64,000 bases of DNA from Candidatus Velesiimonas alkalicola (GTDB lineage Bacteria; Omnitrophota; Gorgyraeia; Velesiimonadales; Velesiimonadaceae), in the NCBI GenBank assembly GCA_013626165.1, contig NDHX01000001.1, forward strand, positions 36,817 to 100,816, in the 5' to 3' direction. The translations under genes were made by a program, and so were the position numbers. How positions within the stretch are numbered: position 1 is the stretch's first letter; each line of letters opens with the position of its first letter. The notes beneath the pieces were generated by a model that ran no database searches, was not told where the DNA came from, and worked only from the letters and a program-made list of their open reading frames with translations. Of the stretch, positions 4,025 through 57,550 are shown in pieces.

Positions 4025-4752
4025 GACAGATACTTTTTCATATAGGACCTTTTGCAGTATATAGTTATGGTCTTTTTTTGGCTATAGGTATCTTCCTCGC
4101 TATGGCTGTCATAAAAAAATTCTCAAGAGTAAGTCCCTCAATAGTAAATTCCCTTTCAATATGGACTGTAATAGGAGGAATAATTGGAGCAAGACTTTTT
4201 TATGTGTTTCTTAATATTGCATATTATATTCAAAGTCCGCTTGAAGTTTTTGCAATACATAAAGGAGGGCTTGTCCTTTACGGAGGTATTGCGGGTGGCC
4301 TTATCTTGGGTTTTATATTTTGTAAAATAAGAAAATTAAACTTCTGGCAAATTTTAGATGATGTTGCAATGGGTCTTCCTCTTGGCATGGCATCTGGAAG
4401 ACTCGGCTGTTTTTTAAATGGGTGTTGTTATGGGAAAGAAACACAGGTTCTCTGGGCGGTAAAATATCCGGACATCCTGTATAAAGTACACCCTGTTCAG
4501 ATTTATGAGGCGTTGCTTCTTGTCTTTCTTTTCTTTGTTATTTATGGATTTAGAAAAGCATTTAAGGCAAAAATCAGAGGAGATGTATTTCTTTTATGTA
4601 TTATTTTTTATGCAATCATAAGATTTTTTATGGAATTTTTAAGAGGCGACCACCCTGAAGGAGTTTCAGGTCTGTTCCAGATTATAAGTATTTTTATCAT
4701 AGTATCATTTACAGGTATAATGCTCTACAGGCATGGAACACAACGAGGATAA
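4021..4752 (+). CDS. lgt: Prolipoprotein diacylglyceryl transferase
   Basis: Polytopic membrane protein with the Lgt signature GRLGCFLNGCCYGK. Its start overlaps the lspA stop by 4 nt. Confidence 0.9.
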   Translation: MRQILFHIGPFAVYSYGLFLAIGIFLAMAVIKKFSRVSPSIVNSLSIWTVIGGIIGARLFYVFLNIAYYIQSPLEVFAIHKGGLVLYGGIAGGLILGFIFCKIRKLNFWQILDDVAMGLPLGMASGRLGCFLNGCCYGKETQVLWAVKYPDILYKVHPVQIYEALLLVFLFFVIYGFRKAFKAKIRGDVFLLCIIFYAIIRFFMEFLRGDHPEGVSGLFQIISIFIIVSFTGIMLYRHGTQRG

Positions 4753-12860: not shown

Positions 12861-13334
12861 ATGCGTATTGCAGGTATTGACCCGGGCCTCTGTATAACAG
12901 GATATGGTATAGTTGAAAAAAAAGCCCATCAGCTACATCTTATTGATGCGGGGACTATACGAAATCCTGTTAGTTTCCCTCTTGAAAAAAGATTAAAAAG
13001 ATTGTTTGAGAATGTAGATATCTTATTTAAAGACCATAAGCCTGATGTTGTAGTAGTAGAAGAAATTTATTCTAACTATAAATATCCCTATACAGCGGTT
13101 CTTATGGGACATGCAAGAGGAATTATATATCTTGCATCAGCAGTCAATAGCATACCTGTGCACAGTTTTAAACCCACACATGTAAAAAAAGCAGCCACAG
13201 GCAACGGTCACGCATCAAAAGAACAGATAGCAGGTGCTATATGTTCAATATTCGGTATAAAGAGGTTTAAAGGATTTTTTGATGTTACAGATGCACTGGC
13301 ACTTACGGTTGCATATGAGCATCGGGTTCGGTAA
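12861..13334 (+). CDS. ruvC: Holliday junction resolvase RuvC
   Basis: MRIAGIDPGLCITGYGIV N-terminus with the catalytic Asp, 157 aa. Confidence 0.9.
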   Translation: MRIAGIDPGLCITGYGIVEKKAHQLHLIDAGTIRNPVSFPLEKRLKRLFENVDILFKDHKPDVVVVEEIYSNYKYPYTAVLMGHARGIIYLASAVNSIPVHSFKPTHVKKAATGNGHASKEQIAGAICSIFGIKRFKGFFDVTDALALTVAYEHRVR

Positions 13335-13336
13335 AT

Positions 13337-13432
13337 AGTAGGTAGAAGGTGGTAAGTAGTAGGTAGGAGGTAGGAGGTAGGAGGTAGTAGGAAATAAAAT
13401 CCCTATCTACAGTCTACTATCTACTACCTAAT
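13337..13432. repeat. Hairpin-forming GTAGG/TAGG-rich inverted-repeat element (copy 1)
   Basis: AATAGTAGGTAG(AAGGTGGTAAGTAGTAGGTAGGAGGTAGGAGGTAGGAGGTAGTAGG)...CCTATCTACAGTCTACTATCTACTACCT. The arms are reverse complements. A related copy lies at 29866-29990. Confidence 0.7.
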
Positions 13433-13469
13433 ACGATATACGGACAATGGAATTTAGGAGGATAATGGA

Positions 13470-21027: not shown

Positions 21028-21099
21028 AATATGTAGGGTCTTCTGAAAAACTCCTATCAGACCCTGATTCCACAGATTAAAAAACAGATTACACAGATA

Positions 21100-21132
21100 A
21101 ACCCCGTTAGAGATCTACTTCTAAACGGGACA
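21100..21132. repeat. Palindromic mini-element CCCCGTTAGA-n-TTCTAAACGGG (intergenic copy)
   Basis: AAACCCCGTTAGAGATCTACTTCTAAACGGGAC. The same arms occur twice in tandem inside glgA (27844-27915). Confidence 0.7.
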
Positions 21133-21189
21133 AAACAAATTTTTAATCTGTGTAATCTTTTCAAAATCTGTGTAATCAATAGTATTTAA

Positions 21190-21266
21190 TGGCGTGCCCG
21201 GGGAGACTTGAACTCCCAACCATTGGGTTCGAAGCCCACTACTCTATCCTGTTGAGCTACGGGCAC
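21190..21266 (-). tRNA. tRNA-Arg (putative anticodon TCG)
   Basis: On the minus strand, a 7-bp acceptor stem GTGCCCG/CGGGCAC, T-arm GGGAG-TTCAAGT-CTCCC, anticodon loop CTTCGAA and 3' GCCA, 77 nt in all. The anticodon stem has one G-A mismatch, so the anticodon assignment is moderately confident. Confidence 0.75.
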
Positions 21267-27738: not shown

Positions 27739-29232
27739 ATGATAAAGGTTTTATATTGTGCATCAGAGGCAGTTCCTTTTGTCAAAACAGGCGGGCTTGG
27801 GGATGTTGCAGGTTCACTGCCAAGATTTATAAAAGCACAAGGTGTTGACCCTGTTAGAAATAAAAAATTTCTAAACGGGGTTGACCCCGTTAGAAATAAA
27901 AAATTTCTAAACGGGGTTGATATAAGAATGGCAATCCCTTATCACAAAAAATTCATCAGTAAGAATTATTTAACAAAAGAGGTTTCACCTGGTATTTATC
28001 AGGGTTGGGAAAAAAATGTGCCTGTATATTTTATAGACCAGCCCCAATATTTTGACCGTGGCGGTATGTATGGAGATGAGAAGGGTGATTATACTGATAA
28101 TTTGGAAAGATTTGTTGCATTTTGTGAAGAAATTCTTAAAATAGTCAATAACACTGGTTTTATTCCTGATATAATACACTGCAATGATTGGCAGACTGCG
28201 CTGATACCTGTTTTTATTGCCGACCGTTCAAAGTCCGATAAAATCCTTTCTTCAATAAAAACAATCTTGACGATACACAATATGAGTTATCAGGGTATTT
28301 TCCCGTTAAAAGATGCCGACAGGATTAAGGTGAGCAGGGAATTTTTTACATCCCATGCGCTTGAATATGATGGCAGACTCAATCTTTTAAAAGCGGGGAT
28401 ATTATATTCTGATTTTATTACAGCAGTAAGTCCGACCTACGCAAAAGAGATACAAACACAGGAACTAGGGTTTGGATTAGATGGAGTGCTTAAAAAAAGA
28501 AGCAACAAAATTTTTGGGATTCTCAACGGCATTTATAATATTAAATGGGACCCTCAGAAAGATAAAGCAATAAAACAAAATTATAGTAGCGAGGATATTC
28601 TGTTAAGAAAAATCAATAAAGAATTTTTACAAAAAATCTGCGGTCTTGAGGTTTCTGACAGACCATTGGCTGGAATGGTTGCCCGCCTGGTAGAACAAAA
28701 GGGATTGGATATCTTAATACCTGCTATTCCAAAACTTATTGAACAGGGCTGGCAGGTTGTCGTATTAGGCACAGGCATGGAAAATTATCATCACCTTCTT
28801 CGTAATCTTACAGAGCAGTACTGTAAAAATTTTTTTGTTGCATTAAGATTTGATGATATTTTCGCAAGACAGATATATGCAGGAAGCGATGTTTTTATTG
28901 TTCCTTCAAGGTATGAGCCTTGCGGAATAAGTCATATGATTGCAGCAAGGTATGGGGCCGTTCCTGTGGTAAGAAAAACAGGAGGACTTGCCGATACTGT
29001 CCAAGATATTTCACTGCGGGATTTAAGTTCCACACATATGCGGGGTTTGGGTTTTGTTTTTAATGATTATAGTGCAGATGTATTCTCTAACTGCATGCAG
29101 AGGGCAAAAAATGCTTTTCAGGACAAGCCAGCGTGGAATGAGATTATAAAAAAGAATATGCAAGAGGATTTTTCATGGGAGTATTCCGCAAAAGAATACG
29201 TAGGGATATATAATAGATCAGTAAGCCCTTAA
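27739..29232 (+). CDS. glgA: Glycogen synthase (GT5), carrying an in-frame 24-aa tandem-repeat insertion
   Basis: N-terminal KTGGLGDV motif and GT-B fold. The insertion GVD[PVRNKKFLNGVD]x2 interrupts the loop that normally reads ...GVDIR. Confidence 0.9.
   Translation: MIKVLYCASEAVPFVKTGGLGDVAGSLPRFIKAQGVDPVRNKKFLNGVDPVRNKKFLNGVDIRMAIPYHKKFISKNYLTKEVSPGIYQGWEKNVPVYFIDQPQYFDRGGMYGDEKGDYTDNLERFVAFCEEILKIVNNTGFIPDIIHCNDWQTALIPVFIADRSKSDKILSSIKTILTIHNMSYQGIFPLKDADRIKVSREFFTSHALEYDGRLNLLKAGILYSDFITAVSPTYAKEIQTQELGFGLDGVLKKRSNKIFGILNGIYNIKWDPQKDKAIKQNYSSEDILLRKINKEFLQKICGLEVSDRPLAGMVARLVEQKGLDILIPAIPKLIEQGWQVVVLGTGMENYHHLLRNLTEQYCKNFFVALRFDDIFARQIYAGSDVFIVPSRYEPCGISHMIAARYGAVPVVRKTGGLADTVQDISLRDLSSTHMRGLGFVFNDYSADVFSNCMQRAKNAFQDKPAWNEIIKKNMQEDFSWEYSAKEYVGIYNRSVSP
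27844..27915. repeat. 2 x 36 bp perfect-but-one tandem repeat of a palindromic unit (GTTGACCC(Y)GTTAGAAATAAAAAATTTCTAAACGGG) inside glgA
   Basis: Direct reading of the sequence. The units differ at a single base. Each unit is an imperfect palindrome sharing the CCCCGTTAGA...TTCTAAACGGG arms with 21100-21132. Confidence 0.85.
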
Positions 29233-29280: not shown

Positions 29281-29895
29281 ATGAAAATAATAGGGTTAAC
29301 AGGTTGTATAGGTTCAGGGAAAACAACGGTTGCAAAAATTTTAAAAAGGCTTGGAGCGCAGATTATAGAAGCAGATGCTGTCTCGCATCAGCTCATCCAG
29401 CCAACGCACACAGGGCCCTTAAATGCATGGAAAAAGGTAGTAAAGATTTTTGGCACAGATATACTTTCTGCCGATAATAGAATTGACAGGAAAAAACTTT
29501 CTGAGATTGTATTTTCTAACCCTTCTTGTTTAAGGAAATTAGAATCTATCCTTCATCCTATGATTATAAATAATATAAAAAAACAGATTTTATATTTTAA
29601 AAAACAATCGGCAAGTTTTATTGTTATTGAAGCTCCTCTTTTAATAGAAACCGGCCTTGATAAAATTGTTGATAAAATAATAGTTGTAAAAACCCCGCAA
29701 GATATAAGATTAAGAAGAGTGTCCAAAAAACTTAAAATCACCATCAAAGATGTAAAAGAAAGAGAAAAACATCAATTAACACAGAAACAAAAACTGAAAT
29801 ATGCAGATTTTGTTATAGATAATTCAGGAAGCATTAAAGAAACAAGAAAACAAGTGGAAAAAATAGTAGGTAGTATTGTAGGAGGTAGTAGGTAG
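29281..29895 (+). CDS. coaE: Dephospho-CoA kinase
   Basis: P-loop GLTGCIGSGKTT at the N-terminus, 204 aa. The last ~10 codons are encoded by a repeat element. Confidence 0.85.
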   Translation: MKIIGLTGCIGSGKTTVAKILKRLGAQIIEADAVSHQLIQPTHTGPLNAWKKVVKIFGTDILSADNRIDRKKLSEIVFSNPSCLRKLESILHPMIINNIKKQILYFKKQSASFIVIEAPLLIETGLDKIVDKIIVVKTPQDIRLRRVSKKLKITIKDVKEREKHQLTQKQKLKYADFVIDNSGSIKETRKQVEKIVGSIVGGSR

Positions 29896-29990
29896 GAGGA
29901 TGATTGGCACTCCATAGGACATAGTCCATCGACTATGGACTAAGTTCATTCCCTATCTACTACCTACTATTCCCTGCCTACTATGTTTAA
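29866..29990. repeat. Hairpin-forming GTAGG/TAGG-rich inverted-repeat element (copy 2) with an internal TAGTCCAT/ATGGACTA palindrome
   Basis: AATAGTAGGTAGTATTGTAGGAGGTAGTAGGTAGGAGG ... CCCTATCTACTACCTACTATTCCCTGCCTACTAT. The left arm overlaps the coaE 3' end. Confidence 0.7.
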
Positions 29991-57090: not shown

Positions 57091-57550
57091 AAAAAGACTC
57101 TCCTTTTTCGTAGTCTACAATGACCGTCTGGTCAGTCACTATAACTATACACAAAATCCGCTTCCCTGTCAAGTATTATTTTTTTTCTCTCATAATTTTT
57201 TTCTCCCCCCCCCTGCATTATTACTCTTTCTGCTATTTCTCATTATACACAGTAGCAAAACTTATAGCTATATCGTCGGTAAACCTTGTTAGAAAGTCCG
57301 GAAATATCCTTATATCCGAAACTTCACAAAACTTTTAAAAAAGCTTCGTAACCACAGATTACAAAAACCCGAGGACACAGATTTTCTTTTGAAGTAATCT
57401 GGGTAATCTGCCTGTTAATCTGTGTGATCAAGTATAGAAAGTGGTTTATACTTTCCTATACTTCAAGAAATCACTTGACACCAAAGATATTAATCGGTAT
57501 ACTAATAAATAGTTAGGCACACGAAGTTTTAATTAATTATAGGGGTTCTC

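Follow-up and report, generated by a model that had tools for sequence, protein, structure and literature searches.

The stretch of DNA analysed here (64,000 nt from Candidatus Velesiimonas alkalicola, contig NDHX01000001.1; hereafter the window) carries the gene glgA at 27739..29232 on the plus strand. It encodes a glycogen/starch synthase of 497 aa, as judged from the open reading frame (ORF), the Pfam domains of its homologs and an AlphaFold model, and it is host to the subject of this work, a tandem array of two short hairpins located within the ORF and 106 nt downstream from its start codon. The protein is identical to MBA2123383.1 of 'bacterium Unc6'. It has the features that define a GT5 glycogen/starch synthase, namely the N-terminal KTGGL motif (KTGGLGDV, residues 16-23) and the two Pfam domains PF08323 (Glyco_transf_5) and PF00534 (Glycos_transf_1), which are recorded on the 99%-identical protein P0001 and on all homolog matches. 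Glycogen synthases of the PDB match it with E = 3.5e-12. The nearest homologs outside its own lineage share 41-46% identity (BLASTP), and those that carry a source label are assigned to Omnitrophota or Omnitrophica.

Tandem Repeats Finder placed the array at 27844-27920 with a period of 36, 2.1 copies and 97% matches, and its score of 147 was the top score in the window. Two 36-bp units that differ by one base and encode the same peptide twice had been described in the first-pass annotation of this DNA, and both the sequence and Tandem Repeats Finder confirmed them: the sole difference, T at 27852 versus C at 27888, is synonymous (CCT/CCC, Pro), and each unit reads PVRNKKFLNGVD in the glgA frame. 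The bounds given at first, 27844-27915, gave way to a better register, which runs over 27845-27920 in the order TTGA, E1, TTGA, E2, TTGA. The first copy of the target tetranucleotide TTGA (27845..27848, plus strand) lies within the codons GTT GAC (V D) and is followed by E1 (27849..27880, plus strand), a 32-nt hairpin of the composition CCCT GTTAGAAAT AAAAA ATTTCTAAAC GGGG, in which the T at 27852 leads to a G-T mismatch at the base of the stem. After the second TTGA (27881..27884, plus strand), E2 (27885..27916, plus strand) repeats this hairpin as CCCC GTTAGAAAT AAAAA ATTTCTAAAC GGGG, also recovered by pattern search, and the third TTGA (27917..27920, plus strand) continues into T ATA AGA, which restores GVD-IR. 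The fold of a single unit as single-stranded DNA is a hairpin of 14 pairs and one bulged A (-12.3 kcal/mol, z = -6.0, 0 of 200 shuffles as good), and the two-unit stretch folds with z = -7.7. Each event adds the 32 nt of the hairpin and 4 nt of duplicated target, i.e. 36 nt or 12 codons, and this addition is present twice. In silico deletion of both blocks of hairpin plus TTGA leaves GGT GTT GAT ATA AGA, which encodes GVDIR. The placement between GVD and IR therefore stands, while the array does not lie directly after KTGGLGDV, as had been proposed, but starts 15 residues farther, behind helix 1.

A comparison with other GlgA proteins speaks to the origin of these residues. The 12 or 24 extra residues are absent from all 17 aligned GlgA homologs (44-49% identity); where the window's protein has GVD, two segments of 12 aa and IR, the sequence is GVDIR in the orthologs P0038 and P0066 and GVDVR in P0042. 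A further 72 metagenomic GlgA sequences are without the insert, and a regular-expression search of 122 proteins found the insert peptide confined to its own lineage, as also holds for the 120 best hits. Orthologs sharing the same 24 residues, named beforehand as the finding that would speak against an insertion, did not turn up among the ~90 GlgA orthologs examined at the site (17 aligned and 72 metagenomic). Searching with phmmer and the 32-aa segment of the window matched only two unrelated low-complexity proteins, and a synthetic 62-aa motif query for the insert peptide gave no scorable candidates. Judging from the 17 aligned and 72 metagenomic orthologs that lack it, the array in glgA is an insertion.

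A relative of the array lies elsewhere in the window. This intergenic family member of 29 nt (21102..21130, plus strand; CCCC GTTAGAG ATCTAC TTCTAAAC GGGA), identified by pattern search and flank comparison, is flanked by TAAA and CAAA and folds more weakly (z = -2.8). Within the window, the pattern CCGTTAGA-N(4-30)-TCTAAACGG is restricted to 21104-21128 and 27887-27914, with 0 matches expected from 100 shuffles, and the match noted earlier between the arms of the glgA units and an intergenic element at ~21100 is borne out by these two occurrences. Unit 1 was missed by the pattern only because of its C>T change. We employed the same pattern to scan a genome collection with one genome per species and obtained at least 120 loci. 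Among the matches listed, ~70 share CCCC-GTTAGA(G/A)..(C/T)TCTAAAC-GGGG, and the 29-nt core of this family is CCCC-GTTAGAG..CTCTAAAC-GGGG with a bulged A. The listed hosts belong to Nitrospirota, Planctomycetota (Pirellulales), Omnitrophota, Latescibacterota, the candidate phyla radiation (CPR; Doudna-, Nealson- and Nomurabacteria) and Deltaproteobacteria-like metagenome-assembled genomes (MAGs), and include the NPL-UPA2 bacterium Unc8, which comes from the serpentinising springs of The Cedars (PMC6305446). Naming and the BBPD/BBPE/BBPG assemblies suggest that 'bacterium Unc6' originates from the same site. Several genomes contain copies on different contigs with genome-specific loops; one Nitrospiraceae MAG, for example, has four copies whose loop is AGAAAATAAC... 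The exact core CCCCGTTAGAAATAAATTTCTAAACGGGG, which equals the glgA element minus three A's of the loop, is found in five other MAGs among the listed matches. Two assemblies of the window's own lineage also contain it, in reverse orientation and ~3.5 kb upstream of the window, as a sibling element whose loop is 3 nt shorter. A control set of unrelated GlgA loci, 429 kb in total, contained 0 family copies. Viral contigs yielded 5 family matches, 4 of them from one phage group, and gave no evidence for a phage vector. A full-text search with DNA and peptide strings of the family, covering part of the journals, returned nothing relevant, and we provisionally regard the family, its size and its target duplication as undescribed.

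The flanks and stems of these copies carry footprints of mobility. The consensus of the left flank is (G)YNAA and that of the right flank YNAA(C), and 22 of the 36 distinct 29-nt copies (those with a loop of 8; among the matches listed) are bordered by identical tetranucleotides on both sides. Shuffled flank pairings gave a mean of 4.0 identical pairs and a maximum of 11 in 10,000 trials. Ten different tetranucleotides are duplicated, including TAAA, TTAG, TGAA, CGAA, CTAA and TCAA. At the level of sequence, this flank identity is the mark left by target-site duplication of 4 nt, with a loose preference for the target. Nested copies have duplications of their own: L055 reads TAAA CCCCG TTAG, the element, and TTAG AGAAC.., and L103 and L091 use CTAA. 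Furthermore, three stem pairs outside the search pattern covary (CG/UA/AU, GC/AU/UA and AU/GC), with 17 double changes compared to 3.7 expected and none of 500 shuffles reaching the observed value. The eight other stem pairs do not vary, being fixed by ascertainment, and are uninformative; likewise, the bulged A of the 3' arm is present in every copy and is demanded by the search pattern.

These features bear on the idea that the lineage natively has the 12 residues as a loop of its own, later duplicated, whose resemblance to the hairpins would be coincidence or convergence. The length of the loop between helix 1 and strand 2 does vary in some orthologs, with 5-6 extra residues in L143, L147 and L169. 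Against this stand the arms, which match over 9 + 9 nt with the same bulge (0 expected by chance), the identical core CCCCGTTAGAAATAAATTTCTAAACGGGG in five other phyla and in the genome of the same lineage, and the 4-nt flank identity across the family. A native loop is effectively refuted by these observations.

To compare related strains, we used the 90% cluster of the window's GlgA, which has three members: the window, L001 (GCA_002581825.1) and L002 (GCA_002581605.1). L001 is 99.8% identical to the window's DNA over 14 kb and contains one unit of the CCCT type. L002 is 99.4-99.7% identical, with one stretch at 98.6%, and its array holds 137 Ns between a CCCT-type left part and a right part, which corresponds to at least two units; the length of the gap, if meaningful, would equal about five. 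The comparison of copy number in related strains that had been proposed for this locus therefore gives assembly-based counts of 1 (L001), 2 (window) and at least 2 (L002). On these sequences, copy number differs or is ambiguous among three near-identical populations. Two other length differences between the window and L002 also coincide with palindromic blocks: the segment ~21033-21188 of the window, including the intergenic family copy, is replaced by ~20 nt in L002, and the second concerns 29866-29985 (see below). Because the N-gap lies inside the repeat array, the gene call for GlgA in L002 starts at an internal Met and gives a protein of 434 aa (P0122; L002 10001-11305), which is an annotation artefact. 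Exact-sequence look-ups of the window's GlgA and PolA for further assemblies found no record, and those of Rho and IleRS found more contigs of the lineage, none of which spans the glgA repeat.

One explanation of the two-unit count is an assembly artefact, the true locus having one unit or some other number. Short-read assemblers do mishandle tandem repeats, L002 has its gap in the array, L001 has a single unit, and a Logan contig of the same lineage (L213) ends at another palindromic block, 9 nt before rho. The element is, however, present in all three independent assemblies, ordinary reads of 100-150 nt span 72 nt, and an artefactual duplication would not create the one-base difference between the window's units. 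We therefore consider an artefact unlikely.

A sub-variant of the explanation favoured below assumes one insertion only, with unit 2 and the differences in copy number arising by slippage as in a coding variable-number tandem repeat, and we give it slightly less than an even chance. Direct GTTGA repeats flank the units, the hairpin would stall replication, and arrays of one, two and ambiguous length in related assemblies are the usual behaviour of 36-nt tandem repeats. However, the unit of L001 and the first unit of both the window and L002 are of the CCCT type, whereas unit 2 of the window has the CCCC of the family consensus, and had a CCCT unit simply been duplicated, a back-mutation would have to have come afterwards. 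This contrast of CCCT and CCCC tips the balance slightly towards two sources, or towards an old duplication with subsequent deletion in L001. Slippage and re-insertion into TTGA lead to the same final structure, between which the sequence gives no decision.

Taken together, inverted ends, a 4-nt duplication, nesting, genome-specific subfamilies and strain polymorphism indicate, as far as sequences can, a non-autonomous mobile element. The proposal of a mobile palindromic element made in the first-pass annotation finds support in the 4-nt duplications, multiple copies per genome elsewhere, nested insertions, and presence or absence among strains of 99.4-99.8% identity. We conclude, with a probability of roughly 0.78, that the glgA array is a non-autonomous, palindromic mobile element of very small size in two tandem copies, similar to repetitive extragenic palindromic (REP) sequences or to a very small transposable element of the miniature inverted-repeat type (MITE).

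Several observations weigh against this conclusion. When the ORFs of 70 family loci (up to 8 kb each) were all clustered, no transposase or other recurrent gene family emerged beside the copies, the recurrent neighbours being common families only, e.g. sigma-54 response regulators; because of the missing linked transposase, mobility is deduced from footprints only. With 29-32 nt, the element is smaller than any with a worked-out transposition mechanism that includes target duplication, and the flank identity could stem from microhomology-dependent copying instead of a staggered cut. A metagenome scan for close GlgA relatives had a best match of 48% identity, which is usable as a negative control and provides no close relative with an empty glgA site at the DNA level. 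Moreover, the element is rare in this genome (3 loci in ~74 kb), the two loci of the window have different loops and show no sign of a recent burst, and the counts of 1 and at least 2 may partly reflect collapse or breakage by the assembler.

The element was compared with known systems, beginning with the palindromes of Rickettsia. Rickettsia palindromic elements (RPEs) are ~100-150 bp long and known only from Rickettsia and close relatives. Like them, the glgA element is palindromic and non-coding, lies in frame in an ORF at a surface-loop site, also has intergenic copies, and comes without a known dedicated transposase. It differs in its size of 29-32 nt, its unrelated sequence, its 4-nt target duplication and its occurrence in many phyla. 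The in-frame insertion is thus shared, and the length (32 nt) and the host ('bacterium Unc6' instead of Rickettsia) set the element apart from RPEs by description. RPEs are known as in-frame palindromes in functional genes, at least as Ogata et al. (2000, 2002) and Claverie & Ogata (2003) are cited in PMC3733652, and RPE-4 and RPE-6 are CGTC REPs (PMC3733652).

The likeness to REPs lies in the imperfect palindrome of 20-40 nt with a short loop, the position near or inside ORFs, the few extra residues, and the way insertion is judged from shorter homologues. In several species, ORFs of known proteins contain GTAG- and CGTC-tagged REPs, and CGTC REPs have no dedicated transposase (Di Nocera et al. 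2013, PMC3733652). In contrast, the present family has neither a terminal GTAG or CGTC (TGTC/CCTC) tag nor a CCA tail, and it has flanking 4-nt direct repeats; its ends are CCCC/GGGG and its arms start with GTTAGA / GTTTAGA, which departs from the tag-based definition of REPs (PMC3733652). REPs mostly occur as dimers or at high copy number, while members of this family are single or in exact tandem and of low copy number. We saw no gene for a REP-associated tyrosine transposase (RAYT) near the copies in the 70 loci of up to 8 kb. The earlier assessment that such a colonisation is unusual has to be qualified, since palindromic elements in frame are documented as RPEs in Rickettsia and as REPs in many species (PMC3733652).

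MITEs such as Correia and Nezha (PMC3184786, PMC10969869) resemble the element in terminal inverted repeats, target duplication, dispersed copies, the lack of an ORF and occasional in-frame insertion. Its terminal arms CCCCGTTAGAG / CTCTAAACGGGG and the fixed 4-nt duplication, with TTGA three times in glgA, agree with this class. MITEs measure 70-300 bp, have inverted repeats of 15-30 bp and a recognisable parent insertion sequence (PMC3733652), and the 29-32 nt of the element, barely more than two arms of 11-14 nt, fall short of this size. No longer element with the same ends, i.e. no parent insertion sequence, was found in the family loci examined. The substrates of HUH (tyrosine) transposases and integrons, i.e. 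IS200/IS605 ends, REP/RAYT and attC, are likewise imperfect hairpins with an extrahelical base, a conserved stem and a variable loop. None of these three systems makes a target-site duplication. An IS200/IS605-type element inserts without duplication, 3' of a fixed tetra- or pentanucleotide, whereas the flanks here are duplicated and of 10 kinds. An identity with attC was rejected because, relative to the stem, the order of the GTT/AAC cores is reversed. Elhai and colleagues are said to have described, in Genome Res in 2008, cyanobacterial repeats of ~20-30 nt that insert into genes and, as nested copies, into each other; these small dispersed repeats differ from the present family in sequence and host range. 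Among known RNAs, only the tRNA-Arg of the window passes the gathering score of Rfam 15, and a known RNA family at the hairpins was dismissed with best matches over both hairpin regions of 10-21 bits against thresholds of 50-197. An intrinsic terminator was dismissed as well, since the hairpins are not followed by a T-run on the sense strand, where neither a terminator-like nor a promoter-like site was predicted at them.

The reading frames of the element bear on its presence within genes. Stops in the arms (TAG or TAA) close two of the three frames on each strand, and the open frames encode PVR(D/N)K(S/F)LNG and PFR(D/N)(L/K)(S/F)LTG. The commonest total added lengths are 29 + 4 = 33 nt and 32 + 4 = 36 nt. 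Among the matches listed, ORFs of at least 150 aa contain 15 of the ~74 copies, of which 13 add a multiple of three. Of the two exceptions, L029 looks like a chance match and L118 lies upstream of the true start. Outside such ORFs, 36 of 59 copies add multiples of three as well; because the 33-nt form is dominant there too, the frame bias in genes is compatible with selection but does not prove it. Proteins with an in-frame copy, identified by Pfam, are PurL (AIRS_C domain; L107), a DegT-family aminotransferase (L108), a Cu-oxidase_4/YfiH protein (L102), MurB with the element between its two domains (L009), and a prepilin-type protein of Unc8 in which the GFT codons are duplicated just before the N-methylation motif (L031, ~7490). 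The earlier notion of a mobile palindrome residing in frame inside glgA is supported. Prepilin-type genes of CPR and NPL-UPA2 repeatedly carry the hairpin in the N-terminal leader (CPR loci L094, ~2700-2960, and L103, ~5280, minus strand; also L031 and L091). These insertions duplicate the GFT codons (GGxTTTAC) upstream of the FTLIE methylation motif, so that the leader is longer and the cleavage motif intact.

To place the insert in the enzyme, we used an AlphaFold2 model of GlgA built on an alignment of 18 sequences, with a mean predicted local distance difference test (pLDDT) value of 84 and a predicted template modelling (pTM) score of 0.84. Residues 39-56 have a pLDDT below 50 and no secondary structure, while the remaining fold is confident. 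This segment, predicted to be disordered, is located between the helix 20-34, which follows the KTGGL loop, and the strand 60-67. The topology of the Rossmann fold suggests that the loop faces away from the inter-domain catalytic cleft, and because the target duplication re-creates GVD, the entry into strand 2 would be unchanged. A GlgA with a floppy surface loop of 24 residues is thus most likely still active, as far as the model can tell.

This leads to the question of whether the insert has a function, be it as a contingency or phase-variable locus, as an mRNA hairpin regulating glgA translation, or as an adaptive loop for regulation or partner binding. In favour of one are the variation in copy number between near-identical strains, the position of two stable hairpins 110-180 nt into the mRNA, and the ORF, which stays open. 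Units in multiples of three, however, allow no on/off switching of the frame, and at the hairpins the sense strand has no predicted terminator-like or promoter-like site. The contingency locus considered in the first-pass annotation finds no support, and its frame-switching form is excluded: a 36-nt unit of 12 codons never shifts the frame, and no promoter-like site is predicted at the hairpins. A role specific to GlgA is at odds with the same element in PurL, MurB, DegT, YfiH, pilin leaders and intergenic DNA, and the segment is predicted to be disordered. Judging from these points, a functional insert is highly improbable, and we favour a tolerated in-frame insertion of variable copy number in glgA, as inferred from the sequence and the model.

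Further repeats were observed in the window and in its relatives. A larger palindromic block (21065..21178, no strand assigned; fold z = -8.6) surrounds the intergenic copy and contains 2 + 2 inverted GATT(A/C)CACAGAT repeats; it is located between tRNA-Arg(tcg) (21190-21266, minus strand) and the start of a GH57 gene (21027). Inverted GATTACACAGAT / ATCTGTGTAATC repeats characterise this second kind of block, found at 21065-21178 and 57350-57430 (11 matches compared to 2.1 expected), with a hairpin element at the centre of the former and none in the latter. The block of ~120 nt at 29866-29985, at which the Logan contig L213 ends, lies between coaE and rho, overlaps the coaE stop region and has many TAGTAGG / CCTACTA heptamers in its arms. 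L001 has this block, and L002 lacks it, with 24 nt in its place and a different CoaE C-terminus. At 13330-13433, ~8 TAGTAGG/TAGGAGG heptamers are followed by inverted CCTACTA-like heptamers; this motif belongs to the same family as that of the coaE-rho block and has 16 matches in the window compared to 3.8 expected. About 3.5 kb upstream of the window start, L209 6115-6205 (= L210 6255-6345) is a composite intergenic structure of a half element (TTCA CCCC GTTAGAT..) and a reverse-oriented full arm pair, GTTTAGAAATTTATTTCTAAC GGGG TCAA, and resembles a loop-8 subfamily copy that has been rearranged or nested. In other genomes, the hairpin is embedded in genome-specific short tandem repeats (L012 ~4640-4700; L081/L049/L116; L025/L042), such as GTGAACT heptamers in a Nitrospiraceae MAG, ACGCAGAT in Latescibacterota and CCTAAA-rich repeats in another MAG, which suggests that the element either prefers or generates them. 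Finally, the GlgA C-terminus (window 29190-29232) ends in ..YNRSVSP in the window, ..YNRLMGK in L001 and ..YNRLMSE in L002; the final 4-5 residues vary among strains and the remainder is ~99% identical across the three, which suggests that the 3' end of glgA contains a small indel or a variable segment.

The sequences show the insertion and its anatomy, the family membership, the 4-nt duplication across the family, the covarying stems, the in-frame copies in other genes and the differences among strains; what concerns the tolerance of the enzyme, the route to the second copy and the mobilising enzyme is inferred. In the explanation that we favour, a 32-nt hairpin entered glgA at the TTGA of GGT GTT GAT and duplicated it, adding 36 nt. 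The copy that survived is in the strand's only stop-free frame, and the duplicated target re-creates the GVD codons and keeps the native GVD-IR entry into strand 2. The second copy may have come from a re-insertion into a TTGA produced by the first event, or from slipped-strand or unequal recombination between the flanking GTTGA repeats. Once two units were present, slippage would add or remove 12 codons at a time, in agreement with the differing copy numbers of the three related assemblies. The bulge, which the search pattern requires, and the conservation of the stem across phyla suggest that a protein recognising the element as a folded single strand may move it. Duplications are made by classical DDE transposases, but such an enzyme would need to synapse ends that are only a few bases apart.

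A broader proposal is more tentative, and we put its odds somewhat below those of slippage after a single insertion. In this proposal, the glgA array would belong to an undescribed cross-phylum family of hairpin transposable elements of 29-32 nt that are built for translation, as their length plus the 4-nt duplication is a multiple of three, each strand has one stop-free frame (PVRDKSLNG / PFRDLSLTG), and the peptide is loop-friendly. Such elements would settle in the housekeeping genes and pilin leaders of, among others, Omnitrophota, Nitrospirota, Planctomycetota and CPR; a horizontally shared enzyme that reads the folded strand via the bulged A would move them, and they would still be active in the lineage from The Cedars.

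The family behind the glgA instance is more interesting than the single locus. In-frame 'selfish DNA' has until now been a curiosity of Rickettsia and some REP families; here, it is far smaller, spans phyla and resides in mostly uncultured hosts. The element creates insertions of 11-12 residues and tandem arrays in conserved enzymes, and the array in glgA would mark a loop that, according to the model, tolerates 24 extra residues. It also breaks short-read assemblies, as seen in the gap of L002 and the contig end of L213, and causes mis-called gene starts. If confirmed, these hairpins would be among the smallest elements with transposon-like footprints, and they pose the question of which enzyme moves a hairpin of 29 nt between distant genomes.

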